From a virus: a DNA stretch of 64,000 nucleotides. The translations under genes were made by a program, and so were the position numbers. The stretch lies in UHGV virus genome UHGV-0375936. The stretch is one strand, 5' to 3'. Below are positions 7,877-48,353 of the stretch, one piece after another (the first letter of the stretch is position 1; each line of letters starts with the position of its first letter). Below the pieces are notes generated by a model. The model saw only the letters and a program-made list of their open reading frames with translations, was not told the origin of the DNA and made no database searches.

Positions 7877-8812
7877 TTACTTTTTGGTTTGACCCAGGTT
7901 TTCAAGAACCAGCTCACGAATATACTTCTGAGTTCGTTTCTTCGGCGGTAGAGCCATAAGAGTGTCAACGATTCCCTGGCCGCCGATAACCTTGCTGACG
8001 AGTTGTTGAACTTGGAAGAGTTCTGCTTCTTCGTCACTGATCTCATTAGCTTGGTCTTTCTGACACAACGCTTCTACCAGGTCAGCTACGGATATTTCAT
8101 TTTCGTCACCGGGGAAATCCAGGTTTAACGATTCGAAAACATCACGCTTAACGAGTACAGATTTCAGATCATCGTAGTCTTCACAAACGGCGACTTCTGT
8201 GCCAGGTACCGTTTCTTCTTCGTCATGATCTCCTTCCTCAGGGTTATGGTATTTTACCAACGGTGAGTTGAACAACGGTCCTTTTTTCATCAGCACAAAA
8301 CCTACATGTGACCAACTGCTCAGGATGAAATAGACAGCAGACCCACTTAATCCGATATTACCTTGACGTAGGTCAAACGCAATTTCTTGACGGCGATAAA
8401 TCTGCCCTAAATCAAAGAAAGCTTCGTCACGAGCTGCAACAACATCATACTGATTCGCACCTTGTTCTACCACAACGAACCAATTACCGTGATCCGTTGT
8501 ATGTTGGTAAGGCACGAAAGATGGGTCATCTCTCATGATGGGATTAATGGCGATGGTCGAATACAGCATTCCCATAGAGAAGTTGAACGTATTCCTTTCT
8601 TGAAACGCAGTGAAATTATCAATTGGAAGGATTAAGGAGGTACGTTCGATAGAGAAAACCGTTTCCTGTGTAATCGACGTTGGATTTCTGCCCAGGAAAT
8701 AACCACGTAAAAAGTCGGCGGTCGCACCCACATTGGTTTGCATCGTCTTGCTGCTATGGTAACGACGTAGCGTGTTAGCCAGTTCGTGAATTACTTCAGA
8801 TGGAAAAGTCAT
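7877..8812 (-). CDS. hypothetical protein
   Basis: 311-aa ORF with RBS. Confidence 0.6.
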   Translation of the reverse strand: MTFPSEVIHELANTLRRYHSSKTMQTNVGATADFLRGYFLGRNPTSITQETVFSIERTSLILPIDNFTAFQERNTFNFSMGMLYSTIAINPIMRDDPSFVPYQHTTDHGNWFVVVEQGANQYDVVAARDEAFFDLGQIYRRQEIAFDLRQGNIGLSGSAVYFILSSWSHVGFVLMKKGPLFNSPLVKYHNPEEGDHDEEETVPGTEVAVCEDYDDLKSVLVKRDVFESLNLDFPGDENEISVADLVEALCQKDQANEISDEEAELFQVQQLVSKVIGGQGIVDTLMALPPKKRTQKYIRELVLENLGQTKK

Positions 8813-8866
8813 TTTAATAGTCCTCTTTTAGGTTTGTTCAAATCAACTAAGGGTTATGTAAAAAAG

Positions 8867-9346
8867 TTAAAATAATGGCAAGTTACGCCATTGTCCTACC
8901 GAGTAAAAAGCTTTTGGATGTTTACGGATATACGCTTTCGCTTCTTCTGGCAACCAACGGTCACCCGCCAGTTTTTGTTGTGCAACAATTACCGCCATCA
9001 ACAAATACGGGTTTTTCGCACCGGGGAACTTTGCATTGGTTTCTAGCGCAATATCCAACATTGACGACCAGCCCAGTAATTTATGTTGCGCCGGTAAACG
9101 TTCTTCAATATACATCAGCCATTTCATGATTTGTTTAGGCTTATACGGACAGGTATAATTCGCCCAACACACCATGACGAACTTAATAGCCTTCGCAATC
9201 ACCCATACAGGGACAGTCACGAAAAGGCAGAAAATGGCCAACTGCGAGGCGGGCGCTTCGACAAAAGTAACCGCTACAAGAACCATACACAGTTCAAGTA
9301 CCACAAACCAAAAACGCGTTGGATAACGCCAAATGAATTTTATCAT
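8867..9346 (-). CDS. membrane protein
   Basis: Two long hydrophobic segments in N-terminal half. Confidence 0.5.
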   Translation of the reverse strand: MIKFIWRYPTRFWFVVLELCMVLVAVTFVEAPASQLAIFCLFVTVPVWVIAKAIKFVMVCWANYTCPYKPKQIMKWLMYIEERLPAQHKLLGWSSMLDIALETNAKFPGAKNPYLLMAVIVAQQKLAGDRWLPEEAKAYIRKHPKAFYSVGQWRNLPLF

Positions 9347-9412: not shown

Positions 9413-9922
9413 TTAGAAGAACGGCTGATTTGGAATGACAGCGTACTCTAAAATGAACATATGTTCCGGGGCGTCTTCTTTACGCCAGACTTTGTGTGTC
9501 GACACAAGTTTTTCCAGAATCGTTAAGAAACTACGTTGGCAGTATGTGTTTTCACCAAGCAGTAGATTTTGAAGTTCTACAGTAGCGTCCATATACGCCT
9601 GTTTAAAGACTAAACTACGGTTATACTGCCCGGTAAAATTCCAAAGCAAGACCTTCCCTTCTTCGGTTTCTTTTACCGTTGGCCGTAAACCACAAATCCA
9701 CAGTAAGGCAAGGTTGACGTTCCAGTCAAACTCTAAACCTTCTTCTTCGTCAACACCGAATGCTGTGGGTAAAGCATCGTAAAATTCGTGTTTCTCTGCG
9801 AATTCTTCATCCGACTTAATCTCGTCTTCGATACTGCTTCGGACAATACTGTAAACGTCTTTCGCGGTCAATTGTGCGGCTTTTGTAATGCCTTTATACC
9901 AATCGGTTACTACGATGCTCAA
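9413..9922 (-). CDS. hypothetical protein
   Basis: 169-aa ORF, 4-nt overlap with upstream gene. Confidence 0.55.
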   Translation of the reverse strand: MSIVVTDWYKGITKAAQLTAKDVYSIVRSSIEDEIKSDEEFAEKHEFYDALPTAFGVDEEEGLEFDWNVNLALLWICGLRPTVKETEEGKVLLWNFTGQYNRSLVFKQAYMDATVELQNLLLGENTYCQRSFLTILEKLVSTHKVWRKEDAPEHMFILEYAVIPNQPFF

Positions 9923-35149: not shown

Positions 35150-38100
35150 ATGCCGAGAGAAGACGCGGCGCAGTTTAACGGTACGCTAAGCACAACGACG
35201 TACCCTAACCGATTTAACGTGGTCATTCCGCCTGAAGGACCTTTTTATCGTATCGGATTAAAACTCACAGTAGCCGACGATACCGCGCCTAACGGACGTC
35301 GTACTCTGATTGAGGGGTTGGACTACTATTTAGGCTATTACTTTAAAGAACTCGCAGAAGCTGAACAAGATCAGATTTATGGCGGGTTTATGTTGCTTAC
35401 TGCAACAGAAATCGAATATGAGATTTTAGGGGTAGCACGTCAATACCGTGTACCGCAATCTGAAATCGGGAAGTTCTTAGTTCGTACTGACCTGAAAGAC
35501 CCACGTAACGTGGACTGGTCAGAGTTAATGGCGTATGCGCCAGTTATTCAACCTATCGATCCCCCTGCTAACTTAGAAGAAGCTATCCTGAGGGATGAGG
35601 TTGTTAAAGCGTTAAACGATATCCGTAAGAAAATCATTCAACGTTCAACAGAGTTAGATGCAGCGTTTACCGAAGTCACTAACCTGATTTACGAGAACGG
35701 TAAAAAGATTTTCGATGAAGAACTATACCAACACCACCTTAATCCTAACGCTCACCAGTATACGACCACTGATGTTGGTGCTCTTCCGGTTTTGGGACGT
35801 GCTGTTGACGCGACAAAAGCGTTTGGACTGACGATTGACCAGCTGGCTACGCTGATGGGTTCGGCGGGTATTGAGCAATCAGACGTTGATCAGTTAATAG
35901 GTGAAGCCCTCGGCACTGTTTACGGTCGTTGGGGCAGCACGAACGGTAACGAACTGACGTTTAAAACCGCAGGCGGACACATCATCAGTATCCGTGGTGA
36001 TAAGTGGTTAATTACCTCACCGCAACCGTTGGTGATTAAAGCAGACCAGGACAACAACGAATCGGGTTTGGCGGTTGAATTTAGTGCGGGGCTGAATACG
36101 CTTTGGGTACACTCTGGGACAGAACAAGATGTATTAGCGCCGGTTTACAACTCTGTGTATTTGGTTACACCAGAAATGGTGAACATGTACCTTACGTCTG
36201 TAACGTTACTTGAAGCAAATGCCTATTTCAAACCATCAGACACCGTAAAACCATACGGTACAGCGAAGCAGTCTAATCCGCTAACGTTGAACGCGAATAT
36301 CCCCACAGCAACCGAGTCGGTTTATGGGGTGTTTTCGATTACGAATATCGCAACCTCCGTAGCACTAGGCACTGCTATTTCCCAAAAGGCGGTGACCGAA
36401 TTAAAAGACCGGTTAGACTTGTACGTTGACGATGACTACACGGTTAACGGTAAAGGGTTTGTTAAGACAGGCGATAAAATGGTGTTAACCTTAACGAAAA
36501 CCGATTTCGGTATCGATAAGATGGATAACACCACGCCGATCGCTAAACCGGTAACAAAAGCGTTAGCGAATGTGCTGAAAAATAAAAGTTTGAAGGTGCA
36601 TACGCACACTACCGCCGATTTGGATAATGTCCCGATTGGTAGTGCGACCGTGGATGGTATCTTACAGCTGTGGGATGCGATTGATACCACGAATGATAAA
36701 GCCGTCACATCACGCCAAGGGTGGTTGTTCGCAAAAGAGATTAAGAAGGTCTCTGATAAACTGAATACCCTCTTGCCCGCATGGACAACGTCCGGGAGCA
36801 AATACACCAATAATTCGATATTGCCGATCTTGTCGATGGGTAATTACGAAGGTTATGGTAAAAACATGGATGCGCTCCAGATGGTTATAGGGGTACAACA
36901 AGGTAAGCTTTATGCTTTAATTAGTTCTAAATCTGCCCTTCCGGGAACTGAGGGTATTTATTACGCTGTTGCTGGGTTAAAAAACGACAAAAGTCTCGGT
37001 GAAATTTACAAAACAACTTTCCGTTATAAGCCGAAAGGGTTAGAGACGAATTATCCGGGGGTGGAACTAAAAGAAATTACCGTTACTGGCACCGAAGCAT
37101 TTATAGCGAAGGGCAGCGACGATAATTATTATTTAGTTAAACTGAACGGTTCAATGGATTACACCAAACATACCGATGTCAGGTTGGTAACTTTCTCAGA
37201 ATTTGTTTCAGAAACAACATGGGAATTTGTGCCGAATATGTTCATGGATCGTGTGGTCATAGCCGATAACGGCGTCTATGTTTTGCGTACGATGCTAATG
37301 GCCGATCTGAAAAACAATAGTCTGGTGGACTACATTAAGGATACTCCGCAACCTATGTTCCGTGTTGGGTTATTGCGACTTAATAAAACCGATCGGTTTG
37401 AACAGGTTGATTTAAGCTCTACACGAAAAATCGGTAAGTGTGCCGATTTGGTTGAACCTGGCGCGTTCGATGTAGATAATCCGAATACGAAGCGTCTTGC
37501 CTACTTCACTGCGGAAGGCAAAGCGTTGTGGACAGTGAATTTACAATTAACTAGAGGGGTGTCAAGATGGATAACGCCCGTTGTTAAGGACGGTCACTTG
37601 TTAACCGTCGGCGTGTCTGGCGTTTGTCTTGGTTTTTCTTCAACGAAAGGTACCACATTCGGGCCATGGAATGGTGCTTATCGTCTCGACCTATTAACCG
37701 GGGAGGTTGGGTTAGAGACAACTAACATCTTCCCAATCAAAATCGATACTACAGGTTGCTACTTAAAAGACGGAACAAAAATAGAGCTGAAATGGAAATG
37801 GGCTACTCGAAGTTCTGGCTATATGGCCGACAATAGAATCTGTGTCGGTGATATGGTTTATTCTTGCTGCTGTTCGACAGAAAAACAACTTGCACCGTCT
37901 CTCCATTACCAGAAACTCCCAGAAGGAGTTAGTTATCTGGACTATGTTAAGTTGAGTGCGGGGTATGAGGGGCAATCTACGTTTGAAAATCGGATAAACC
38001 CTGTGGTGGGTTCGGTGTGGAAACCGTCTATGACCTTCCCATTGTTCTTCCCAGGAACAAACAAAGTATGGCTTAAACATCAAAAAACGGCTTATTTCAT

Positions 38101-40336
38101 TGAAGCCGAATATGATAAAGATACGACTTATGGTTATCCTGGATACGGCGGGTTTGGACCAACATCCCGCCGTGTTGAAAAAAAAGCGAACGAATACGGC
38201 GTATTGACAAATATACCGCTGGTTGTTACGCCAGACATACCGAAAGGTCTACTAGATGGGGCTTACTTTATCGGTGCTGAAAGTAAACCATGTAAAGTTG
38301 TTTACGGTACCACTACGGTGGCTAGTGATCGGTTGTCTATCGATGCGGCAGAATGGGCGAAGTTGACTAATATTGTTCAGTCCAGCCAGTTCTCTGGGGC
38401 TTCTAACGGCAACGCCTATGAGCGGATTAGCGTAGCTAAGACCAAAAAGAACAACTACAGTTTGTCCTTTTGGGTGCTTGGTCAAACGATGTCTGGTGGT
38501 CCGCTTTGTATCGCGATAGTGAGTCTTATCTATAAAGACACTGACGGGGTAAATAAGTTTGCTTTTTACTTCTTTCAGGTAAAACCGACTATAACCAACG
38601 GGGTCATAAGGTTCGTTAGTTCGGAAGCGAGAATGATGACGTTCAGGGAAAAAGTGGCCAGTAACGCCATTAATCTCTCACCCACAGCTTTTAATGGTGA
38701 ACTTAAACAACGCTCCGGTCAAGTTTTCCTTTATTCGCAAGACGGACAAAAGTTCAGATTCTCAATACATAACCTGGTTGGCGGGAATCTTGTAGGATCA
38801 GAGATTTCTTTTGCTTTTGGGATAAACTTGACTAAAAAAGGAGAATGGTTTACCGGCGAAATTCATCGGGCGTGGGGCTATACGTATACGCTGAATAATA
38901 CATCTGAAGTCTATATACCCGATCTCTCGGGCATCGCGCTATTGACTTGTAACTCGGAAGATTTAAACGAGTTGTATCTCGGTGGCGAACAGTATAGAAT
39001 CTCTGATTTGTTTAACAAAAAATATACTGTTATCGATAAGATTATTATTGGCGGCGTACAAACACAGAGCGGTTGGAATTTCTATCTGACGGAGGAAACC
39101 GAGTTAAGTTTTGGAAATAAAAGATATACCGTTCCAAGATGGTCCGTTGATTTAAGCGATGAATTCCCGACTAATCACGCTAACCAGACATTCTACGTTT
39201 ATGCTGAAGTGGTCGGTTCTACTGCCCAATACCGCATCGGTTTAGAGCAGTTAGCTGATACCTCGTCGAGACTGTTTGTTGGGACAGTAACCACTGATTC
39301 GAACCGTATTACGGATATCAGTATCGATAAAGTAAAACGGTTAGGTCGTGTAAAAGAGCTGGAAAATCATGCCTCGGTTGTTGATCAGCACGATGTGGCG
39401 CAGGCGTTCGACAGGAAAACTGGTCCACTATTAACAGTGGTTAATAAACCCGTTAAAGCCATTACAGCATCTGCGAGCAAGGGTGCTGGGTATGTCGATG
39501 GCCAGAAATGGAATACGTTGTCCGGGATTGCAACGCGGCCCAGGTTGCCGGTACAGGAAACCTATTCAGGTTATAAAAGTATCAGCAGGGTGGCGTATGA
39601 GAACTGCGCTGACCAGTTCTGGCAGAAAGCGGTTGCTGCGAACGTTGCAGCGGCTACTGCTTCTGAGAACAAACAAGCAGCAACCGCGAACATGAAGTGG
39701 TTGGGTGCGTATACGAAACCGACTACCGGCGAGTATGCATATCTGGCATTGAGTCTGCGTGTTAAAGTACCTGGCGATCCTGGTACTACTAATCGTCGAC
39801 TGAAAATCAGGCTTGCGGCCCCGACAGGTATAACTCAAGTTCGTTACGGGCTAAATCAGTCTGGCGGTACGATGACTGAACAGACAGTAACGCTAACTGC
39901 TAACAGTTACCTGGAAAAAGAACACGCGGGATTTAAGCCAGCCGCCGAAGTCCGCCTTCATGCTACGTTTGTCATTCCAAAAAATGAATACGATAGCTAC
40001 CGGACCAAATTTGGTGCTGTTCAGCTGATTGACGTTGAGACGAACACTGTCATTAAACAGACAGATATCGACACACCGTTTATCGTGTACACCGCCACAG
40101 AGCAAGCGGCACAATCTGGTTTGGTGTATAAAGCGGTTAAGAGTCAGTTTCGTCAACTCCCGGCTCAACCTGTCGTCATTGTAACTGATGGACAGACAGG
40201 GACTACACCACCGGTGAAAACCGCATATTCTGACGGCACGTTAACGGTCTACGTGGCAACCACGTACGATGCGGTTAACCCAGCACAAACTCGCGATATC
40301 GATAAGCTCCAGTTCAATCTTATGTTTACATCTTAA
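35150..40336 (+). CDS. tail-fibre-like protein (paralog 3 of 4)
   Basis: 1728 aa; AGGAG RBS; shared N-terminal domain (PPEGPFYRIGL...GLDYYLGYY). Confidence 0.65.
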   Translation: MPREDAAQFNGTLSTTTYPNRFNVVIPPEGPFYRIGLKLTVADDTAPNGRRTLIEGLDYYLGYYFKELAEAEQDQIYGGFMLLTATEIEYEILGVARQYRVPQSEIGKFLVRTDLKDPRNVDWSELMAYAPVIQPIDPPANLEEAILRDEVVKALNDIRKKIIQRSTELDAAFTEVTNLIYENGKKIFDEELYQHHLNPNAHQYTTTDVGALPVLGRAVDATKAFGLTIDQLATLMGSAGIEQSDVDQLIGEALGTVYGRWGSTNGNELTFKTAGGHIISIRGDKWLITSPQPLVIKADQDNNESGLAVEFSAGLNTLWVHSGTEQDVLAPVYNSVYLVTPEMVNMYLTSVTLLEANAYFKPSDTVKPYGTAKQSNPLTLNANIPTATESVYGVFSITNIATSVALGTAISQKAVTELKDRLDLYVDDDYTVNGKGFVKTGDKMVLTLTKTDFGIDKMDNTTPIAKPVTKALANVLKNKSLKVHTHTTADLDNVPIGSATVDGILQLWDAIDTTNDKAVTSRQGWLFAKEIKKVSDKLNTLLPAWTTSGSKYTNNSILPILSMGNYEGYGKNMDALQMVIGVQQGKLYALISSKSALPGTEGIYYAVAGLKNDKSLGEIYKTTFRYKPKGLETNYPGVELKEITVTGTEAFIAKGSDDNYYLVKLNGSMDYTKHTDVRLVTFSEFVSETTWEFVPNMFMDRVVIADNGVYVLRTMLMADLKNNSLVDYIKDTPQPMFRVGLLRLNKTDRFEQVDLSSTRKIGKCADLVEPGAFDVDNPNTKRLAYFTAEGKALWTVNLQLTRGVSRWITPVVKDGHLLTVGVSGVCLGFSSTKGTTFGPWNGAYRLDLLTGEVGLETTNIFPIKIDTTGCYLKDGTKIELKWKWATRSSGYMADNRICVGDMVYSCCCSTEKQLAPSLHYQKLPEGVSYLDYVKLSAGYEGQSTFENRINPVVGSVWKPSMTFPLFFPGTNKVWLKHQKTAYFIEAEYDKDTTYGYPGYGGFGPTSRRVEKKANEYGVLTNIPLVVTPDIPKGLLDGAYFIGAESKPCKVVYGTTTVASDRLSIDAAEWAKLTNIVQSSQFSGASNGNAYERISVAKTKKNNYSLSFWVLGQTMSGGPLCIAIVSLIYKDTDGVNKFAFYFFQVKPTITNGVIRFVSSEARMMTFREKVASNAINLSPTAFNGELKQRSGQVFLYSQDGQKFRFSIHNLVGGNLVGSEISFAFGINLTKKGEWFTGEIHRAWGYTYTLNNTSEVYIPDLSGIALLTCNSEDLNELYLGGEQYRISDLFNKKYTVIDKIIIGGVQTQSGWNFYLTEETELSFGNKRYTVPRWSVDLSDEFPTNHANQTFYVYAEVVGSTAQYRIGLEQLADTSSRLFVGTVTTDSNRITDISIDKVKRLGRVKELENHASVVDQHDVAQAFDRKTGPLLTVVNKPVKAITASASKGAGYVDGQKWNTLSGIATRPRLPVQETYSGYKSISRVAYENCADQFWQKAVAANVAAATASENKQAATANMKWLGAYTKPTTGEYAYLALSLRVKVPGDPGTTNRRLKIRLAAPTGITQVRYGLNQSGGTMTEQTVTLTANSYLEKEHAGFKPAAEVRLHATFVIPKNEYDSYRTKFGAVQLIDVETNTVIKQTDIDTPFIVYTATEQAAQSGLVYKAVKSQFRQLPAQPVVIVTDGQTGTTPPVKTAYSDGTLTVYVATTYDAVNPAQTRDIDKLQFNLMFTS

Positions 40337-40376
40337 CGCCACGAGACAAGGACGTCTCGGATTAAGGAGAGTGGCC

Positions 40377-41576
40377 ATGGCCTCCATTGTATACCAATAC
40401 CCTTTAGATTTAACGGGAACCCTAACCTCTAACGCCGTGGAGCGTCAGGTTACGTTAGGTACAGGTAAAGTTAACCGTGCGTTTGCTTTTCCTGACGGTC
40501 CGTTTTATGCTGATACGTTCCGCTTGCGGGTTGCTAACCGCCCAGATGCGACGTATGAGCGCGGAACGGACTATGAGTTGATTTTTGCACACCCGGCTTA
40601 CGAGAAATTGACGAAGAACCGGGAAGTGGTAATGGCGGTTGTTGTAACGAACACCGCGATTCCGACCGATATCACGGTATCGGCGCAAGTAGTCGGGGGC
40701 CCGCAGTCGGCAAACGTGACTGCGATAGAACAGGCGATTGCTGAGTTGAATCTCGATAATCGAACTGTTGGCTTTAAAGACTTGCGAAATGTTCCTGATA
40801 CATTTCCTTCGGCACCAACGTATAAAGACGTCGGCGATATTTACGGCTTCGAATACATCATTACAGTGCTCGCCGGTATTAAAGATGCGATAACTGCTGG
40901 CGATGCTGTACAGCTTGAGAACATCAAAGCGATTCTCGAAAGCCTGAAAAACGATTTCCTGGACGCGCTGAACGCGCACATTAACGCCACGGGTAACGTC
41001 CACCATCTGGATATTCACCAGGTTAACGGGTTAACAGAAACGGAGATCCGTGCACTGATCCGTGACGTACAGTCTGCCATCGATGCAACCATTACTGATA
41101 TTAATGCGTTGAAGAAAGCAGACGAAGCGTTAGGAAAACGTATTGATGCTGTTGTCAAATCTCTGGAAGCGTGGAACGACCAACTTAACGTCGTTGCACA
41201 AAACTACCAGAAAATGGCACTGGCAATGGCGAACCTAAACTCGTTAGTGTTACAGTTACAGAAAAATATCAACGATCTGAGCACCAAACTCAACCAAGCG
41301 ATTCAACGTATTGCTGCGTTAGAACAGCGGGGTAATGAGTCCGATCAGAAAATTGATAAACTGCAACAAAACCTGGATGCGCTTAAACAGCAGGTTAATA
41401 ATAACACGAACGCAATCAGTCAGGCGAATCAGAACCTACAAAACCATATTGCGGCAGACAACCCACACACAGGCTATCTCCACAAGAAATACGGTGGTGT
41501 GGTTCAGGCTCCAGTGCACGTTAACGCTAACTTGACGTCCCGTGATGACGTTCAGGCAGAAGCGGGTACGAAATAA
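40377..41576 (+). CDS. tail-fibre-like protein with coiled coil (paralog 4 of 4)
   Basis: ATG after AAGGAG; N-terminus FPDGPFYADTFRL...GTDYELIF shares the fibre N-domain; long heptad-like C-terminal region. Confidence 0.6.
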   Translation: MASIVYQYPLDLTGTLTSNAVERQVTLGTGKVNRAFAFPDGPFYADTFRLRVANRPDATYERGTDYELIFAHPAYEKLTKNREVVMAVVVTNTAIPTDITVSAQVVGGPQSANVTAIEQAIAELNLDNRTVGFKDLRNVPDTFPSAPTYKDVGDIYGFEYIITVLAGIKDAITAGDAVQLENIKAILESLKNDFLDALNAHINATGNVHHLDIHQVNGLTETEIRALIRDVQSAIDATITDINALKKADEALGKRIDAVVKSLEAWNDQLNVVAQNYQKMALAMANLNSLVLQLQKNINDLSTKLNQAIQRIAALEQRGNESDQKIDKLQQNLDALKQQVNNNTNAISQANQNLQNHIAADNPHTGYLHKKYGGVVQAPVHVNANLTSRDDVQAEAGTK

Positions 41577-41643
41577 CTTTATTACAGGAGGAACTATGCT
41601 TATGGGCGTAGTCCTCCATTCTTTTTTATTTTAAGGATACGTG

Positions 41644-42039
41644 ATGGCGATCAGTGTTAAAAATGTACGTGACCGAATCACCAACGTAGAGAACCAAATG
41701 GCAACTGGCCCACGTGTTGATCCGCAAGTTGCGTCGAAAGCACATAATGCCGCCGACACTTTTTCGGGTTGGACGCCAAGTCGGTTAGACTGCGGGGGAA
41801 GTTGCAGCTGGACGTGCTCAAACGGCTGTACGCACGGCTGTACGAGTTGTTCGGGCACCTGTACGTCAGTATGTGTAGGTAGCTGCTCCTCTGCGTGCGG
41901 TAACCAGTGTACTGGATGTAGTTCAACATGTTCCGGCGGCTGTTCAGGTTGCAGTGGGACCTGTGGTGGTGCTTGCTCGGGCCGTTGTTCTACGGGTTGT
42001 TCTGGTGCTTGCTCTGGTGGCTGTTCTGGCCCAACCTAA
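41644..42039 (+). CDS. Cys-rich peptide A, candidate RiPP precursor
   Basis: AAGGA RBS; about 50-aa leader then about 80-aa core with about 21 Cys, mostly C-x3-C (CGGSCSWTCSNGCTHGC...); track ORF starts 3 nt earlier at GTG. Confidence 0.6.
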   Translation: MAISVKNVRDRITNVENQMATGPRVDPQVASKAHNAADTFSGWTPSRLDCGGSCSWTCSNGCTHGCTSCSGTCTSVCVGSCSSACGNQCTGCSSTCSGGCSGCSGTCGGACSGRCSTGCSGACSGGCSGPT

Positions 42040-42049
42040 GAGGTGAAAA

Positions 42050-42448
42050 ATGGCAATTGGATTACCTGCGCTACAAGCGCGGCTAAATAACATTGACAAC
42101 ACTGCATTGAAGAATACGGGTGCAGTGCAAAACTATATTCGTGGGAAAGCGACGAACAACGCAGACTTATTCGGTGGACAAGCTCGCAACCATTACGACT
42201 GTGGTGGGAGCTGTAGCTGGACCTGTTCGAGCTGTTCTGGTGGTTGTACAGGGAACGCATCAGGCGGCTGTGGTTCTTCGTGTTCTGCAAACTGTGTATC
42301 AGGTTGCAGCGCAGGCTGTAGCGGATGTTCGAATACATGTTCTGGTGGCTGCTCAGGAAGCTGTACGGGGAGTTGTTCTAACTCGTGTGTGGGAAACTGT
42401 TCTTCAGGCTGCTCGGGCAGTTGTTCTGGTGGGTGTTCTGGGAGGTAA
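42050..42448 (+). CDS. Cys-rich peptide B, candidate RiPP precursor
   Basis: GAGGTG RBS, 10 nt after peptide A stop; core DCGGSCSWTCSSCSGGC... with about 20 Cys. Confidence 0.6.
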   Translation: MAIGLPALQARLNNIDNTALKNTGAVQNYIRGKATNNADLFGGQARNHYDCGGSCSWTCSSCSGGCTGNASGGCGSSCSANCVSGCSAGCSGCSNTCSGGCSGSCTGSCSNSCVGNCSSGCSGSCSGGCSGR

Positions 42449-42450
42449 TT

Positions 42451-42657
42451 GTGATTAGCCTTAAGAACCTTCGTGATCGATTAGTAACAGCGGAAGGGTA
42501 TATTACGACCGCTAACGCAAACAACTATATTGCAAACCAGGGCACCGTGTCTTCAACCAATAACCTTGCCGGTTTACCTTTAAGCCATTATAACTGTAAC
42601 GGCGGATGTAGCTGGTCGTGTAGCGGTAGCTGTAGTAAAGGCGCGGGGGGAAGGTAA
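42451..42657 (+). CDS. short Cys-rich peptide C, candidate RiPP precursor
   Basis: GTG start 5 nt after GGAGG, 2 nt after peptide B stop; leader VISLKNLRDRL resembles peptide A; core NCNGGCSWSCSGSCSKG. Confidence 0.5.
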   Translation: MISLKNLRDRLVTAEGYITTANANNYIANQGTVSSTNNLAGLPLSHYNCNGGCSWSCSGSCSKGAGGR

Positions 42658-42806
42658 CTAAGCCCTCCAGTGGTAGTATGTCTATTACGCAATAACCGAG
42701 TTAATCGTACGGGTTTACTACTGAGTTTCAAGTTACCGGTAGGCAATGGTGCGGTGGTTTCTATACCCTGAATGTCCGTTTGACCGTGAAATAATTGGAG
42801 CAATCA

Positions 42807-43694
42807 ATGAAGAATGATTTACATTTAGCATACAAAACAATTTTCAATCATCCACTTCACATTTCTTCCCCTGATTCCGTACGTGCACACTTAGCAGATG
42901 AAGTTCGTCTGCTGACTCAGTTGCCGGGCGAATGGCCTAAAGTACGCGGACGTTTCTTTACCGATCGTAAAAACTATCGTGTAGAAAATACGTTTAAGAT
43001 TCGTGATCTGACGGCAGAAAGTGTGGTGGTCTTTACCGGTGACTCCGAGTTGCGTGGTAAACTGGTTGCGGGTAAATATTTCTTTAGTGACGGGATTTTG
43101 AATAACTCCGTAGATATGGAATTGTTCTTTACCCCATTTGAAGAAATGGGCGCAAAACCGGTTGCCCGTCGTTGGTGGTCACCGGATTACTTAGGCTCGT
43201 TCCCGTATTTCTTTACCCTGGTAACACCAGAAACGAAGAACTATTTCGATACGGAATCGTATATCGAAATTGAAGGGTACGAAGCGTTAGGGATTAATTG
43301 CTTAGCGGATTTAATGGCGTATAGCTATAAGTTCGTGTGGGATCGTGAACGTTCCGTGTGGGTTGCCCTGACGGATGAACATGAAATCACAAAACGCATC
43401 CGTAAGCCTTGGATGCAGCATTTGATTCAAACGCGTATTGGCGAGCATCCGTCAACAGAAGCGGATCTGGCAAAACTCCTTAGTTTCTTAATGACGAAAG
43501 TCACGTTAACTGACGAAGAGAAAGCAGCAGTGTCGGCGGTGTTGGACCGTAACGTAACGTTAGCGGATTTAGAACGTTTAAATGTCCGTTATAAAGACCT
43601 TAACCGTATTTTGGAAGCGTATAACTCTCCATTCTTGTTAACCCCTGGTGCTAACGTAGACGACGATCCTTTGTTCGCCATTGATTATATTTAA
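42807..43694 (+). CDS. hypothetical protein, candidate RiPP accessory
   Basis: ATG at 42807 with GGAG RBS; 296 aa between precursors and radical SAM genes; no motif recognised. Confidence 0.55.
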   Translation: MKNDLHLAYKTIFNHPLHISSPDSVRAHLADEVRLLTQLPGEWPKVRGRFFTDRKNYRVENTFKIRDLTAESVVVFTGDSELRGKLVAGKYFFSDGILNNSVDMELFFTPFEEMGAKPVARRWWSPDYLGSFPYFFTLVTPETKNYFDTESYIEIEGYEALGINCLADLMAYSYKFVWDRERSVWVALTDEHEITKRIRKPWMQHLIQTRIGEHPSTEADLAKLLSFLMTKVTLTDEEKAAVSAVLDRNVTLADLERLNVRYKDLNRILEAYNSPFLLTPGANVDDDPLFAIDYI

Positions 43695-43715
43695 AAACGA
43701 CCGGAGTCACCTGCA

Positions 43716-44639
43716 ATGACAACCAATGCAGAACCAAGGTTATCGAATCGTTTATACGATAAACCCACCGTATTGTCCGTAGTCGCTACGTCCAAGTGTA
43801 ACCTGGATTGTAGCTTCTGCGGTGGAGCCTATTACATGAATCGTGAAGATTCTCCGCGAGAGTTTCAACGTGAGCGAATTTTGGAAGCGCTGGAAGCTAA
43901 TCCAACCATTACCGAAATTCAGTGGACGGGTGGTGAGCCATTACTGGCAACCCGTAAAATTGAGGCGTTTGTTGACGAATTAAAAGTGATTCGTCCAGAA
44001 CTCAAACACCAGTTGTATACCAATGGCTTAAAGATGCGTAAATCGCATCTCCCGTTGCTAAAACAGTTTGACAATGTCTACGTTAGCATCGATGGGTTTA
44101 AGTCGTCTGAGCGCCCGTTTATGCGCTTTATTGACGAAGGCTGTTACGAAGCACTGGAAACGATCTACGAGCTGGATAATGTCCAGACTTGGGGTGTCCT
44201 GACACGGGACCGTTTAGGGGACAAACGCTGGCACGAAGATATTATTCAGCTGCACAGCGCGATTTACCATTACGGTTTCCGTGCAATGACGTTACTCTTA
44301 GATGCGAAAATGCCAAAACCTTTATCGCCTGACCACGTCATGAACTTTATTTACGGCTACTATCAGGTTCAGGATAACATTGAACGACTGAATGTAGTAA
44401 ATAGTCGTGAATGCGGCTTTACAGTAAGTAAAGTGTTTGAAGAAGGGTGTAACGTTTGCAGCGAAAGTCTTTGGATTAATGCAGACGGCGGTGAGCACCA
44501 ACTCCAGAATGCACCTAACGTTCTGGAATCGGGATGTAACCAACTGGCCTTCTCTATCGGTGTAGAGGCGTACGAATATATTCGTCGCGTAGTGATGGCA
44601 GGGCGTAATAGAGGGGCGGCAAATGAGTCAAGTAAATGA
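43716..44639 (+). CDS. radical SAM enzyme
   Basis: CNLDCSFC (CxxxCxxC) near N-terminus, GGEPLL SAM-binding motif, four more Cys in the C-terminal third. Confidence 0.8.
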   Translation: MTTNAEPRLSNRLYDKPTVLSVVATSKCNLDCSFCGGAYYMNREDSPREFQRERILEALEANPTITEIQWTGGEPLLATRKIEAFVDELKVIRPELKHQLYTNGLKMRKSHLPLLKQFDNVYVSIDGFKSSERPFMRFIDEGCYEALETIYELDNVQTWGVLTRDRLGDKRWHEDIIQLHSAIYHYGFRAMTLLLDAKMPKPLSPDHVMNFIYGYYQVQDNIERLNVVNSRECGFTVSKVFEEGCNVCSESLWINADGGEHQLQNAPNVLESGCNQLAFSIGVEAYEYIRRVVMAGRNRGAANESSK

Positions 44640-45945
44640 ATTCCCTAAGCAGTTAACGTATCAGATCGTAACCAACCTTTCGTGTAACCTGGACTGCGAA
44701 TATTGTTACGAACGTAAGTACCCGCGTAACAACAAAGCGGCGGATATTGTTGATTTCTTACACGCCTGTTTTGAACGTGATAAAAACGAACCGAATGTTG
44801 AAGTTATTATCGACATTATCGGTGGTGAGCCGTTCATGCAGCCTAAACTGCTGCTGGCTGCGTTTGAAACCGCTGAGCAGTTGTGTAAAGAACACAACCG
44901 ACCGTTTATGTTTAGTATTTCCACGAACGGAACGCTGTTAGATCGTCCGTTGAACCGTGAGATCGTAGAACGTTGGAAAGATAAACTTTCGGTTGGGGTT
45001 TCGATTGACGGCTTACCTGAGTCCCATGACCGTTATCGTATCTTCACAACAACACGCCAGGGTTCTTACGAAGCCGCAGTACGTGGCTATAACTACTTAA
45101 AAGAGGTTGGCATTGCAGAGCTCGGCGTAAAAGCAACCTTTACGTTAGAAACGCTGCCGTTCTATGCTGCGGGGATGAAGTCATTAATTGACATTACTGG
45201 CGGTGGGACAATTTCTGGAAACGTAACTTTCGAAGACGTTATGCCGCGTAGCATGGCGACATCAATCGCTTTACAGATGATGGATGTGATCGATTATTGG
45301 GTTGAGAAAGGATTACACACCAACCCACGTAATATCTTATCGCACATCATTCCAGAAGGGTTGGATTTCGATACGATTTGGGAACCGAACTGGCGTGACC
45401 AGTTACTGTATAATGACACCGTACGGTTGAACCCAGAACGTTTACGTCCGTTCTGTGGGACGTTAACGCACATGACGTGCTTAGGATTTGACCGTAAGAT
45501 CTTTGGCTGTAACCGCTTTATGTCAACGGTAACGTCGCGTTCTGCGGTGTTTGAGTTGGTAGGTCGGGAATTCGTCAGTCTGGACAACGGTAAGCTGCTA
45601 GAAGAGATTCAAACGCAATATACCAACTACCCAGAGACCTGTTTAGGTTGTCCGATGAAACACGCTTGTGGTAGCTGTGCTGCGGCTTCTTACGAGAACG
45701 GGGAAGGAACGTTAGAAGACCGTAAGGCGTATCACGCTGAACGACGTCAGTGCGGCTGGACGACAGCGAAACTGATGGTGGCGGAATACTGGAAACAGAA
45801 GATGGGTACGACGTCAGCAAAAGCGTTCCATGACACGAGCATGTGTTATTGCCCACGCTGTGTTCGTGAACGTGCCCAAAAGGAAAAATTATTAAGAGAA
45901 GCCAAAGATGAAACCAATTCTGATCAACAATATTACGAAGCGTAG
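44623..45945 (+). CDS. radical SAM enzyme with SPASM-like domain
   Basis: CNLDCEYC, IGGEPF, STNGTLL, and C-terminal CLGCPMKHACGSCAA Cys cluster; 17-nt overlap with upstream radical SAM gene. Confidence 0.8.
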   Translation: MSQVNEFPKQLTYQIVTNLSCNLDCEYCYERKYPRNNKAADIVDFLHACFERDKNEPNVEVIIDIIGGEPFMQPKLLLAAFETAEQLCKEHNRPFMFSISTNGTLLDRPLNREIVERWKDKLSVGVSIDGLPESHDRYRIFTTTRQGSYEAAVRGYNYLKEVGIAELGVKATFTLETLPFYAAGMKSLIDITGGGTISGNVTFEDVMPRSMATSIALQMMDVIDYWVEKGLHTNPRNILSHIIPEGLDFDTIWEPNWRDQLLYNDTVRLNPERLRPFCGTLTHMTCLGFDRKIFGCNRFMSTVTSRSAVFELVGREFVSLDNGKLLEEIQTQYTNYPETCLGCPMKHACGSCAAASYENGEGTLEDRKAYHAERRQCGWTTAKLMVAEYWKQKMGTTSAKAFHDTSMCYCPRCVRERAQKEKLLREAKDETNSDQQYYEA

Positions 45946-46480
45946 AATTCGACTTCTGGATAAGTTTCTGGAAAACAGTAAGCTATTCGGTTGTTATGTG
46001 GTGATTAACGGTGAAGATTTTACCGATGACGTAAAACGCTTACTGATTCGTCACGGCGTGACTGTAATCATCCCAATGTACTGCACCGAACTTACTGACC
46101 TGTCGGTCGCGGAAATTGAAAAACGTAACCCAGGGTTTGAAGAACGGGTATTGGATTTCCCACGTCACAAAATTGCGTTTCTACGCCGCTCTTTAAGCGA
46201 ACCCAGCGCAGAATCTATCACTGTGTTGGCATTGTCCTTCCCAGGCATTACTATCTTCGCAACACGTAACCCGAACTCACCGATTGATGGGTTTTACGAT
46301 GAGCGGGAGAAATTTAATAGCGTGATTTTTCCTGAACTAACGCCAGAAGAATGTCAGGGTATCCGTATCGATTGGGAATCGGACTTCGACACAAGATTCC
46401 GTCATATCGATTTTGAACTGTTAATCGAATTAGGGTTGATTAAAGGAGACGATGAATGTCTGCTACTGGTGAAGGCTTAA
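45908..46480 (+). CDS. hypothetical protein
   Basis: 190-aa ORF overlapping the end of the radical SAM gene. Confidence 0.5.
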   Translation: MKPILINNITKRRIRLLDKFLENSKLFGCYVVINGEDFTDDVKRLLIRHGVTVIIPMYCTELTDLSVAEIEKRNPGFEERVLDFPRHKIAFLRRSLSEPSAESITVLALSFPGITIFATRNPNSPIDGFYDEREKFNSVIFPELTPEECQGIRIDWESDFDTRFRHIDFELLIELGLIKGDDECLLLVKA

Positions 46481-47127
46481 CGAAAGAAGAAATCCGTCGC
46501 CGTTATTTTGCGCACGATTTACCGATTGACCGTCATGGTAACTACATGGAGAAAATCGGTAGCGAAGATCACGGCCGTACAGGGTTTTGTGCATTACTGC
46601 ACTATAAGTTGATTGATGGGATGTCTGATCGCGAAGCATTGGAGCAAATGCGTAACTACGACATGTCTGAAATCGAAGCACGGTTTACGCTACAGAAAGC
46701 GAAAGACTTTGTTAACGACACGCTGGGAATTGACCTGGAAGAGATTCGTACGGGGTTACGTTCCACCGTACGGTACATCTTTACCGATGTTCAGAAAATT
46801 CTAAGCGCTTTGGAATTCCGTTATCAGGATGCGCGCTATGCTGAGATTCAGGTAGGTGATTTCACTTTCCAGGCAGATGAGAAGTCACAGGTAGCACTGA
46901 GTCGTTATATCCAGTCAGAAACTGCGCCAGCGTATTGGTTAACGGCTAACAACACCCGTATCGAACCGTTTACGTTAGAACAGTGCAAGACGTTGCTGGC
47001 AGCAATCGTTGAGCGTGATCAAAGACTACACCACGCAATGTCTGAGCAGAAAAGAGAAGTCAGGGCTTGGGCTGAAGCACGTGATTACGATTCGATAAAA
47101 GCGTTTGCGTTAGAGCAAGGGCTGTAA
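46456..47127 (+). CDS. hypothetical protein
   Basis: 223-aa ORF overlapping previous gene; last gene before bidirectional terminator. Confidence 0.5.
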   Translation: MSATGEGLTKEEIRRRYFAHDLPIDRHGNYMEKIGSEDHGRTGFCALLHYKLIDGMSDREALEQMRNYDMSEIEARFTLQKAKDFVNDTLGIDLEEIRTGLRSTVRYIFTDVQKILSALEFRYQDARYAEIQVGDFTFQADEKSQVALSRYIQSETAPAYWLTANNTRIEPFTLEQCKTLLAAIVERDQRLHHAMSEQKREVRAWAEARDYDSIKAFALEQGL

Positions 47128-47134
47128 TCGACAG

Positions 47135-47190
47135 CGAAAAAAACAGTATACCTACCTCCCGTAATAGGAGGTAGGTATTTTTATTTTTTC
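47135..47190. terminator. bidirectional Rho-independent terminator
   Basis: 12-bp perfect stem ATACCTACCTCC-CGTAATA-GGAGGTAGGTAT flanked by A-run and T-run. Confidence 0.7.
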
Positions 47191-47721
47191 TTAGGACGTA
47201 AAACCGTCCAGCTCACCGTTGGTGGTGGCCAGGTCAATACGATTATCAACAACCTTCGGCGTAATTACGAAAGTTGCCATTACACCTGGCTTATAACGGA
47301 GGTTCTTTTCAGTAACGGTACACGTTACCGTACGCAGAGTGACGCTATCGTGTTCGTCTTTCTGGTCTTCGGTGGTGTACTCAGCGTCACCAGGTGCGAT
47401 AGAGTCGTCAGGTTTTACTTTATTGATGTAAAACTGTAATCGGTCGCGTAGTTCGTTTTCTCCAGTCCAGAGAGCCAAATCGTCCGTTACCTCAATGCGT
47501 CCGACAACGCCAGGTTCCAGACGATCGTAATGCAGTTCGATTGCGCCTTTAAAATTTTCAGACTCTGTACGTGCGGTCATGGTAACTTTGGTATTTTTAT
47601 CGCCCTTTTCAAGAGCGACAGGTTGACCAAAAGTTACCTCTTTATCAGTGACCTGATGCGGTAGCTCTGTGTTAGCAGCATTATAAAGCGCAACTAACAT
47701 CATCTGGTTAGTAGCTGCCAT
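47191..47721 (-). CDS. putative virion protein, paralog family B
   Basis: Shares NTKVTMTARTESENFKG...HYDRL and NGELDGFT with 47787..48353. Confidence 0.5.
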   Translation of the reverse strand: MAATNQMMLVALYNAANTELPHQVTDKEVTFGQPVALEKGDKNTKVTMTARTESENFKGAIELHYDRLEPGVVGRIEVTDDLALWTGENELRDRLQFYINKVKPDDSIAPGDAEYTTEDQKDEHDSVTLRTVTCTVTEKNLRYKPGVMATFVITPKVVDNRIDLATTNGELDGFTS

Positions 47722-47786: not shown

Positions 47787-48353
47787 TTACTCTTTAGGCG
47801 CTGGTGCGGTGAAGCCATCCAGTTCACCTTCCAAACCGCTCAGTGCTACTTTCTCAAGAGCTGGAGGGGTAACTTTATACGTCGCAACAGTACCTGGCAG
47901 GAACTTCAAGTGGCCAGCCACAACCGTTACCACGTAAATGGTTTTGCCTTCTTCTTCACGAGAGATAGTTTGCAGGTCGTTTTCACCGAACTCGTCATCG
48001 GTGTACCCTTTCTCAGCCATGGCTGCGTTAACTTTCGCCAGGATTTTCGTCGGTGAATCGAAATCGGTAGTAGGTGCAGTTACTTCAACTTCACCAACGA
48101 TGTCGCAGGAAAGACGAGTATAGTGGAATTCTTTCTCGCCTTTGAAGTTCTGGCTTTCTGCCTTGGCGGTCAGAGTAATTTTAGTGTTGCGGCCAGCTTC
48201 TCCGGTGAACTCAGCGACAGCACTAAAATTAACATCATTTACAGTCAGCTTAGAAGCAGTTTGGTTGTTTTTAGCAATTACAATCTCGATAAGCTGCTGT
48301 TGAAAAGTTTTAGCCATTGTTTTTACCTCGTAAGTAGTATGGGTGGTTTGCAT
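47787..48353 (-). CDS. putative virion protein, paralog family B
   Basis: Paralog of 47191..47721. Confidence 0.5.
   Translation of the reverse strand: MQTTHTTYEVKTMAKTFQQQLIEIVIAKNNQTASKLTVNDVNFSAVAEFTGEAGRNTKITLTAKAESQNFKGEKEFHYTRLSCDIVGEVEVTAPTTDFDSPTKILAKVNAAMAEKGYTDDEFGENDLQTISREEEGKTIYVVTVVAGHLKFLPGTVATYKVTPPALEKVALSGLEGELDGFTAPAPKE

Follow-up and report, generated by a model that had tools for sequence, protein, structure and literature searches.

An orphan-fold phage protein beside two radical-SAM enzymes, a candidate adaptor in a proposed maturation of cysteine-repeat tail fibers

Peptide-modifying radical S-adenosylmethionine (SAM) enzymes usually carry an N-terminal leader-recognition domain, the RRE (recognition element of RiPPs, peptides that are ribosomally synthesized and then modified post-translationally), and the radical-SAM enzyme PqqE has PqqD as its stand-alone RRE partner. 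The enzyme pairs of the two-enzyme sactipeptide systems, TrnC/TrnD of thuricin CD and RumMC1/MC2 of ruminococcin C, consist of SPASM paralogs that bear RRE domains. To our knowledge, the radical-SAM peptide maturases described so far come, with few exceptions, from small natural products that are secreted. PapB, from the PapA/PapB system of the ranthipeptide freyrasin, forms Cys-Asp/Glu thioethers in CX3D motifs, and its dependence on an RRE is presumed (PMC9413430); for thuricin CD, the two radical-SAM enzymes reportedly act in synergy (PMC12093266). Here we analyze a cassette in the window, that is, the whole stretch of 64,000 nucleotides of virus genome UHGV-0375936, in which the gene for a 295-residue protein, T, follows three genes for CXXX-repeat proteins (C, or c for the short one) and precedes genes for two radical-SAM enzymes (A and B). 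An earlier reading of the letters alone (the sequence-only reading) had noted three small open reading frames (ORFs) 5' and two radical-SAM ORFs 3' of T, and these neighbors are confirmed. We read T as a non-virion, probably non-catalytic adaptor or holdase of the A-type enzyme in the maturation of tail-fiber CXXX repeats, and give this reading a probability of roughly 55%.

T is a real and strongly conserved phage protein, far beyond a chance ORF. It is the ortholog of gp165 of phage SPN3US (NC_027402, locus L001 among the related loci compared, which are numbered Lnnn; orthologs of SPN3US gpN are termed gpN-like), with 74.9% identity over 100% of its length, and it matches the phrog_8030 profile at E 2.7e-141 (residues 1-293 against profile positions 1-293 of 295). 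Homologs make up 48 clusters among 5.8 billion proteins and were found by tblastn in 63 phage records, and the ratio of nonsynonymous to synonymous substitution rates (dN/dS) against the L005 ortholog, 0.078, indicates strong purifying selection, dS being saturated against more distant orthologs. The ORF, 42795-43694, opens with TTG; the start is placed at the ATG at 42807 because a GGAG lies 6 nt 5' of it and because every T homolog has MKN(D/E) as its N-terminus. This ATG is followed by 295 codons and a stop (43692-43694), and the 296 amino acids given in the sequence-only reading, which was right about the ORF itself, include the stop.

The association of T with its neighbors can be followed through five gene arrangements, whose carriers include jumbo myoviruses at one end and a podophage-like contig at the other. 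In the close clade, comprising 18 loci of the SPN3US, Erwinia, and Cronobacter (CR5) type, the order gp168-gp167-C-C-c-T-A-B-gp162-gp161 is invariant, and four further architectures contain T, C, A, and B. Gut and rumen phage contigs (L018-L024) have the order fiber::C-T-A::B, in which T stands between a CXXX-ended fiber and a fused double radical-SAM protein, with further fiber genes after them. In L029 and L031 the order is gp167-A-B-C-C-c-A-T-x-B, the A and T genes overlapping by 8 nt, L030 has fibers-B-gp162-C-C-c-T-A-gp167, and the podophage-like contig L034, which encodes a T7-type terminase, has the bare cassette C-A-T-B. Where T stands with respect to the CXXX genes and B differs among these loci, and T directly adjoins an A-type gene or domain in every T locus compared; L034 and the gut clade have kept T and have no homologs of gp167 or gp168. 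No T was found in nine phage loci with B-type or ScfB-type radical-SAM enzymes only, of which L025 is the one clean CXXX-repeat system, the others being SCIFF-like or unclear. T is very probably a dedicated component of the C/T/A/B cassette. The earlier suggestion of a new accessory family has stood up well, since T stays with radical-SAM and Cys-peptide genes over five gene orders and at ~20% identity, while the description of T as wedged between precursors and maturases fits the SPN3US-like clade only and fails in L029, L031, and L034, where T lies between two radical-SAM genes.

In the gut and rumen phages T lies directly 3' of the CXXX-tipped fiber gene, which is the classic position of a chaperone, and T might be a folding or assembly chaperone of tail-fiber tips, comparable to T4 gp38/gp57A or the Tfa proteins, aiding oligomerization or attachment of the Cys repeat independently of the radical-SAM enzymes. 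Such a role would also suit a protein without a catalytic signature that does not count among the SPN3US virion proteins (both described below), but in L029, L031, and L034 A separates T from the CXXX genes while T adjoins A in all architectures, and the clean CXXX locus without A (L025) is also without T. Nor is T related in fold or sequence to known fiber chaperones: it has no Pfam or PHROG match to Tfa, gp38, gp57A, or S74, and the best structural match of this kind, a 'putative tail fiber assembly protein' in BFVD, is not significant (E 0.19, template-modeling score 0.13-0.16). We consider the chaperone explanation unlikely.

Several of the compared loci have features of their own. In the gut-phage contig L025 (MT835573, 7448-10251), a gene for a 193-aa CXXX protein is followed by ORFs of 202 aa and 94 aa and then by a single TIGR04115-like maturase, all directly 3' of baseplate- and fiber-like genes; the two ORFs might solve the accessory problem in a separate, unrelated way, and the 202-aa ORF was rejected as a distant T homolog (hhalign probability <1%). 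The metagenomic relatives L007 (5410-6285) and L008 (5411-6286) have an extra A-type paralog, 62% identical, inserted after the first CXXX gene and before the second. In L031 (1-6315) and L029 (4022-6326) radical-SAM genes are packed into ~12 kb around the cassette, seven of them flagged by Pfam in L031 and four in L029, and both loci have a second A/B pair 5' of the CXXX genes.

The three ORFs 5' of T encode proteins rich in Cys, Gly, and Ser. Each begins with ~50 residues that close with a fiber-like junction (e.g., KATNNADLFGGQARNHYDCGGSCSWTC; in CXXX protein 1 the pattern is 'NA..F.G....LDCGGSCSWTC') and continues with Cys mostly 4 residues apart, the third protein having the N-terminal region of the other two and the first repeats only. 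Against TIGR04114, the family of CXXX-repeat radical-SAM targets, which has a cut-off of 20 bits, proteins 1, 2, and 3 score 14.4, 19.4, and 12.8 bits, and the related gut-phage protein of L025 scores 21.3 bits, above the cut-off. The same CXXX repeat forms the last ~60 residues of tail-fiber proteins of 449 aa or 861 aa with typical fiber motifs in the gut and rumen phages, and the CXXX protein of L034 has a junction in common with the window, '...LGGKAPNHYDCGGGCSWTC' (pattern 'LGG....HYDCGG.CSWTC'). Judged by these sequences, the CXXX substrates most likely belong to fibers, and the small CXXX proteins of the SPN3US-like phages would be located at fiber tips.

The cassette most likely cross-links Cys-repeat tail-fiber tips rather than making a secreted peptide. 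The sequence-only reading had taken it for a RiPP cluster with precursor peptides, a view that should be revised for a cassette that lies in a tail-fiber module and whose repeat is elsewhere the C-terminus of long fibers. Small Cys-rich ORFs followed by radical-SAM enzymes are superficially RiPP-like, and phage contigs with apparently genuine SCIFF/ScfB pairs do exist, as would be expected if the cluster were a conventional RiPP or bacteriocin moron in which T conferred immunity to a released peptide, exported it, or regulated it. This is extremely unlikely, as the cassette contains no transporter, protease, or membrane protein and T is soluble, as it sits inside a late tail-fiber block with no internal terminator, and as its repeat is fused to tail fibers elsewhere, while the phage SCIFF loci have no T. 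Candidate loci of this kind lie on four human-fecal phage contigs, L026 (8390-10050, MT835472), L028 (1002-2660, MT835702), L037 (565-2186, MT836452), and L038 (3096-4719, MT837846), where small ORFs with the motif CGECQTSCQSACKTSC lie directly 5' of the gene for a 455-487 aa radical-SAM enzyme. The motif, which we take to be SCIFF-like, suggests that they are phage-borne SCIFF/ScfB-type ranthipeptide pairs; no T homolog was found in any of the four.

The two radical-SAM enzymes of the cassette are of different types. A is a short, MoaA/twitch-like enzyme. Its family matches are confined to the N-terminal core (MoaA, W (tungsten)-cofactor maturase, and NrdG-like), with NrdG2 matched at E 1.8e-8 by A and at E 2.2e-19 by the fused gut-clade A::B, and four Cys in its C-terminal part (233, 245, 248, and 274) are candidates for binding a single auxiliary cluster. 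B has SPASM-type Cys at 278, 286, 296, 340, 343, 349, 352, and 377, and its best families are PapB (116.8 bits, cut-off 340) and the CXXX-repeat maturase family TIGR04115 (114.7 bits, cut-off 350), both aligned along almost the whole model, TIGR04115 with residues 10-371 at model positions 3-345 of 359. Since these scores are far below the curated cut-offs, B is a relative of the PapB/TIGR04115 enzymes and not a member; the fused gut-clade enzyme scores 188.4 bits and the L025 maturase 300.6 bits against TIGR04115. No N-terminal RRE was found in A or B, nor is there room for one: CX3CX2C begins at residue 28 in A and at residue 21 in B. Taken as a whole, the cassette reads best as the phage form of the CXXX-repeat/PapB-type maturation system, redeployed on tail fibers, with A and T added.

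The strict adjacency of T and A could also mean that T is the substrate or a regulated partner of A, in the style of an activase, and that the CXXX proteins are modified by B only. The core of A does resemble small activase-like or MoaA-like radical-SAM enzymes, as its NrdG2 matches indicate, and T has a conserved C-terminal tail motif; yet T contains no glycyl-radical motif, its candidate residue G281 lacks conservation among remote members, its fold does not resemble that of glycyl-radical proteins, and A is fused to B in the gut clade, an arrangement which argues that A and B act on one substrate. We regard this as highly unlikely, and give little weight to a glycyl-radical reading of T.

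T itself has no counterpart of known function. The earlier remark that no motif is recognizable in it agrees with our searches, in which T had no Pfam, NCBIfam, or PDB sequence match: Pfam gave nothing at E<=0.1 and NCBIfam nothing at E<=0.01, and a profile of 41 homologs matched no PDB chain at E<=10. Across Pfam, NCBIfam, PHROGs, and the PDB profile the sole match is phrog_8030, annotated as of unknown function, and the gp162-like protein was rejected as a T paralog (hhalign probability <1%). A scan of 1.84 billion representative proteins gave 43 representatives of the T family, all of 65-322 aa and none long enough for an extra fused domain. The AlphaFold2 model of T, built on 41 homologs, is a confident one (mean predicted local distance difference test score, pLDDT, 88.4; predicted template-modeling score, pTM, 0.84) and contains an N-terminal alpha/beta domain (~1-190), a C-terminal helical domain (191-272), and then a short tail with a conserved DPLF, a 'DP(L/I/V)xF' motif being present in remote members too. 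Foldseek searches with this model returned nothing from the PDB at E<=0.001 and a single significant match from BFVD, the ortholog of Erwinia phage Asesino. The predicted fold is, on this model, an orphan one. Confident homology to an unrelated phage structural or DNA-metabolism protein, which would have refuted the sequence-only reading, was found neither by sequence nor by fold.

The close and remote T alignments match each other in hhalign with 99.8% probability (E 5.6e-29, 237 columns), and on this alignment evidence the remote members (~20-25% identity) are true homologs, which keep chiefly the C-terminal half (profile positions ~160-275). Across the three T subfamilies, conservation falls mainly on residues of the hydrophobic core, together with D168, K175, D190, K200, K223, K231, R261, and T235, and it includes no Cys, His, or Ser. 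T is soluble and acidic (isoelectric point 5.4, grand average of hydropathy -0.28, Kyte-Doolittle maximum 0.90 in a 19-residue window). Because its core hydrophobics are conserved and Cys, His, and Ser are not, because it is soluble and acidic, and because it is the C-terminal half that is kept, T looks like a binder and not an enzyme.

None of the folds proposed in the sequence-only reading (RRE-like, peptidase, or transporter) was found in T. T matches no PqqD/RRE profile (Pfam PF05402 and relatives) and is not a winged helix-turn-helix of ~90 residues with three helices and a three-stranded sheet; it has no peptidase family or fold; and it has neither a membrane segment by hydropathy nor an ABC- or MFS-type domain in Pfam. 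A new-fold enzyme that carries out a separate step, as a leader protease that would remove the ~50 N-terminal residues of the small CXXX proteins or in a second modification, is a rather poor prospect. It is common for RiPP clusters to pair a protease gene with the maturase gene, and several polar residues are invariant within the close clade (H28, R47, R49, K90, E150, D168, K175, R197, R199, K200, Q208, E238, and D287), but most of them are lost in remote homologs of the same context, in which H28, E150, E238, and the Ser and Cys residues are not conserved; no family or fold of a peptidase or of any other enzyme is matched; and removal of a leader makes little sense in the gut clade, where a long fiber carries the repeat C-terminally.

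Proteomic data on SPN3US bear on the location of T. Mass spectrometry (MS) of SPN3US virions found 86 proteins, which include gp167-gp173 and do not include gp161-gp166 (PMC5694885, Supplementary Table 1); proteins were reported down to 4 spectra, and gp167 is in virions without being assigned to the head (PMC5694885). T has many tryptic sites, and since gp165 is missing from this set T is not a detectable virion component. Its position inside the tail-fiber block, beside the virion proteins gp167 and gp168, might suggest a low-copy tail or baseplate component by which the small CXXX proteins are anchored to the fiber apparatus, but this is hardly probable for a protein that went undetected despite those tryptic sites and that reporting depth, and that co-varies with the enzyme genes and not with gp167 and gp168, which L034 and the gut clade lack.

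For the CXXX proteins, absence from the virion MS is weak evidence, because the SPN3US reference annotation is missing two of the three CXXX genes and has the third truncated, and in proteomics on that annotation two CXXX proteins would be undetectable and the third detectable in part only. The CXXX ORFs of L001 are at 7947-8336, 8353-8748, and 8773-8976, and the annotated gene (gp166/gp100) spans 8426-8761, with homology from 8353. The A-type gene of L001 also appears shortened in the annotation, its homology beginning at 9911 and its annotated start being 10031, so that the apparent true start is ~120 nt upstream.

If T is the adaptor or holdase that we propose, it would fill the RRE gap of A and B as a stand-alone protein and would bind both A and the substrate. 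The conserved part of T, its helical domain with the DPLF tail, would serve for docking on the conserved A-type enzyme, and the variable part, the N-terminal alpha/beta domain, would grip the variable stretch that directly precedes the Cys repeats, keeping the Cys-rich segment reduced and accessible. A and B would then install cross-links, most likely thioethers, on the CXXX repeats, and the matured fiber protein would be released for assembly while T, itself presumably non-catalytic, remains in the cell. That T represents a new class of stand-alone radical-SAM partner, in which an orphan fold replaces the RRE and enables the two-enzyme cross-linking of virion fiber tips, is a more tentative idea, in which we have less than even confidence.

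Several considerations weigh against the adaptor proposal. All functional statements about T derive from its gene neighborhood, and the adaptor role is assigned purely by analogy, because T is unlike RREs or known chaperones. A lack of conserved catalytic-type residues is compatible with catalysis via the backbone or a bound cofactor. The set of loci without T holds a single clean CXXX-repeat system, and the absence of gp166 from the SPN3US virion list leaves a structural role of the small CXXX proteins unsupported. Finally, most phage CXXX repeats have no Asp/Glu acceptor such as PapB uses, and the chemistry may therefore differ from that of PapB.

The surroundings of the cassette are those of a virion module. 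The window comes from a jumbo phage of the SPN3US type, with ~72% nucleotide identity to Seoulvirus genomes over 41600-46000, and the cassette is embedded in a late tail-fiber block (Table 1) whose genes, from the gp168-like to the gp161-like, are all co-directional and ordered exactly as in SPN3US. No terminator-like site was found on the + strand from 40000 to 47148. The noncoding gap that separates T from the third CXXX ORF (42658-42806) measures 150 nt, against ~25 nt in SPN3US; it has no Rfam match and folds no better than shuffled sequence (z 0.71).

Table 1. Coordinates of T and the surrounding block in the window.
Feature	Position	Strand	Length	Remarks
gp168-like baseplate/tail-fiber protein	35150..40336	+	1728 aa	First gene of the block shown
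gp167-like coiled-coil virion protein	40374..41576	+		Flanks the cassette in four architectures
CXXX protein 1	41641..42039	+	132 aa	21 Cys; phrog_6085; TIGR04114 14.4 bits
CXXX protein 2	42050..42448	+	132 aa	20 Cys; phrog_6085; ortholog of SPN3US gp166 (truncated annotation); TIGR04114 19.4 bits
CXXX protein 3	42451..42657	+	68 aa	4 Cys; phrog_6085; GTG start, GGGAGG ribosome-binding site
T	42807..43694	+	295 aa	34 kDa; pI 5.4; SPN3US gp165 ortholog; phrog_8030
A-type radical-SAM enzyme	43716..44639	+	307 aa	PF04055 E 6e-14; CX3CX2C at residues 28-35
B-type radical-SAM/SPASM enzyme	44623..45945	+	440 aa	PF04055 E 3.4e-15; CX3CX2C at residues 21-28
gp162-like protein	45908..46480	+	190 aa	phrog_7988 (annotated function unknown); with the cassette in 3/5 architectures
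gp161-like DUF4376 protein	46456..47127	+	223 aa	Final gene of the block
Bidirectional terminator-like hairpin	47148..47178	.		Closes the block

The block is a mosaic in its protein identities. The gp168-like protein is 99% identical to that of L005 and 59% identical to that of L003, and the proteins from gp167-like to gp161-like are 99-100% identical to those of L003 (a 225-kb IMG/VR contig) and ~70-85% identical to those of L005, values that fit a recent recombinational swap of the large fiber gene. Past the hairpin lie two paralogous ORFs, 47191-47721 (-) of 176 aa and 47787-48353 (-) of 188 aa, the first of them at the position of SPN3US gp160. In SPN3US, gp160 is a highly abundant head protein of paralog family B, which the main text of the source lists as gp161 and its supplementary table as gp160 (PMC5694885).

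If our reading is right, RiPP-type chemistry would be at work in virion construction, building the host-recognition apparatus of phages that range from jumbo myoviruses to small gut phages, and a possible benefit to the phage would be receptor-binding tips that resist proteases and redox changes in the gut, in the rumen, and on plant surfaces. T would then be a recognition or holding factor without an RRE and a new means of bringing thioether-forming enzymes to bear on large proteins, and C, T, A, and B would be a four-gene marker for a previously unrecognized fiber type. In the searchable literature we found nothing on SPN3US gp163-166 and nothing that links radical-SAM or SPASM enzymes to tail fibers or their Cys repeats, and the Goslar cryo-electron microscopy preprint makes no mention of radical SAM or cysteine.

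The closest relative of T among described proteins is SPN3US gp165/phrog_8030 itself, of which T is a full-length ortholog in the same gene order from gp168 to gp161, with no structural difference. The T family is thus already catalogued, and what is new is the accessory protein and the substrate context of radical-SAM repeat maturation. Nor is the cassette categorically new, because the CXXX/PapB group, already known, is clearly where B and the repeat come from. With TIGR04114/TIGR04115 and PapA/PapB it has in common the tandem CXXX repeats and the two best families of B, but it adds A and T, its repeat is on tail fibers or encoded beside them, most of its repeats have no Asp/Glu acceptor, and B falls far under the family cut-offs. 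By functional analogy only, T may be likened to a PqqD-type stand-alone RRE in being a small, soluble protein whose gene lies beside that of a substrate and that of a radical-SAM maturase without a recognition domain of its own, and which would link the two. The two-enzyme sactipeptide systems likewise combine two radical-SAM enzymes with several Cys substrates, but the phage enzymes A and B are of different types and have no RRE, and the orphan T is an obligatory part of the gene set. Finally, fiber chaperones such as T4 gp38/gp57A, Tfa, and Peptidase_S74 resemble T in that it is a non-virion protein of a fiber module and lies 3' of the fiber gene in one clade, but T resembles them in neither sequence nor fold, and the gene that it strictly accompanies is that of a radical-SAM enzyme, not that of a fiber.

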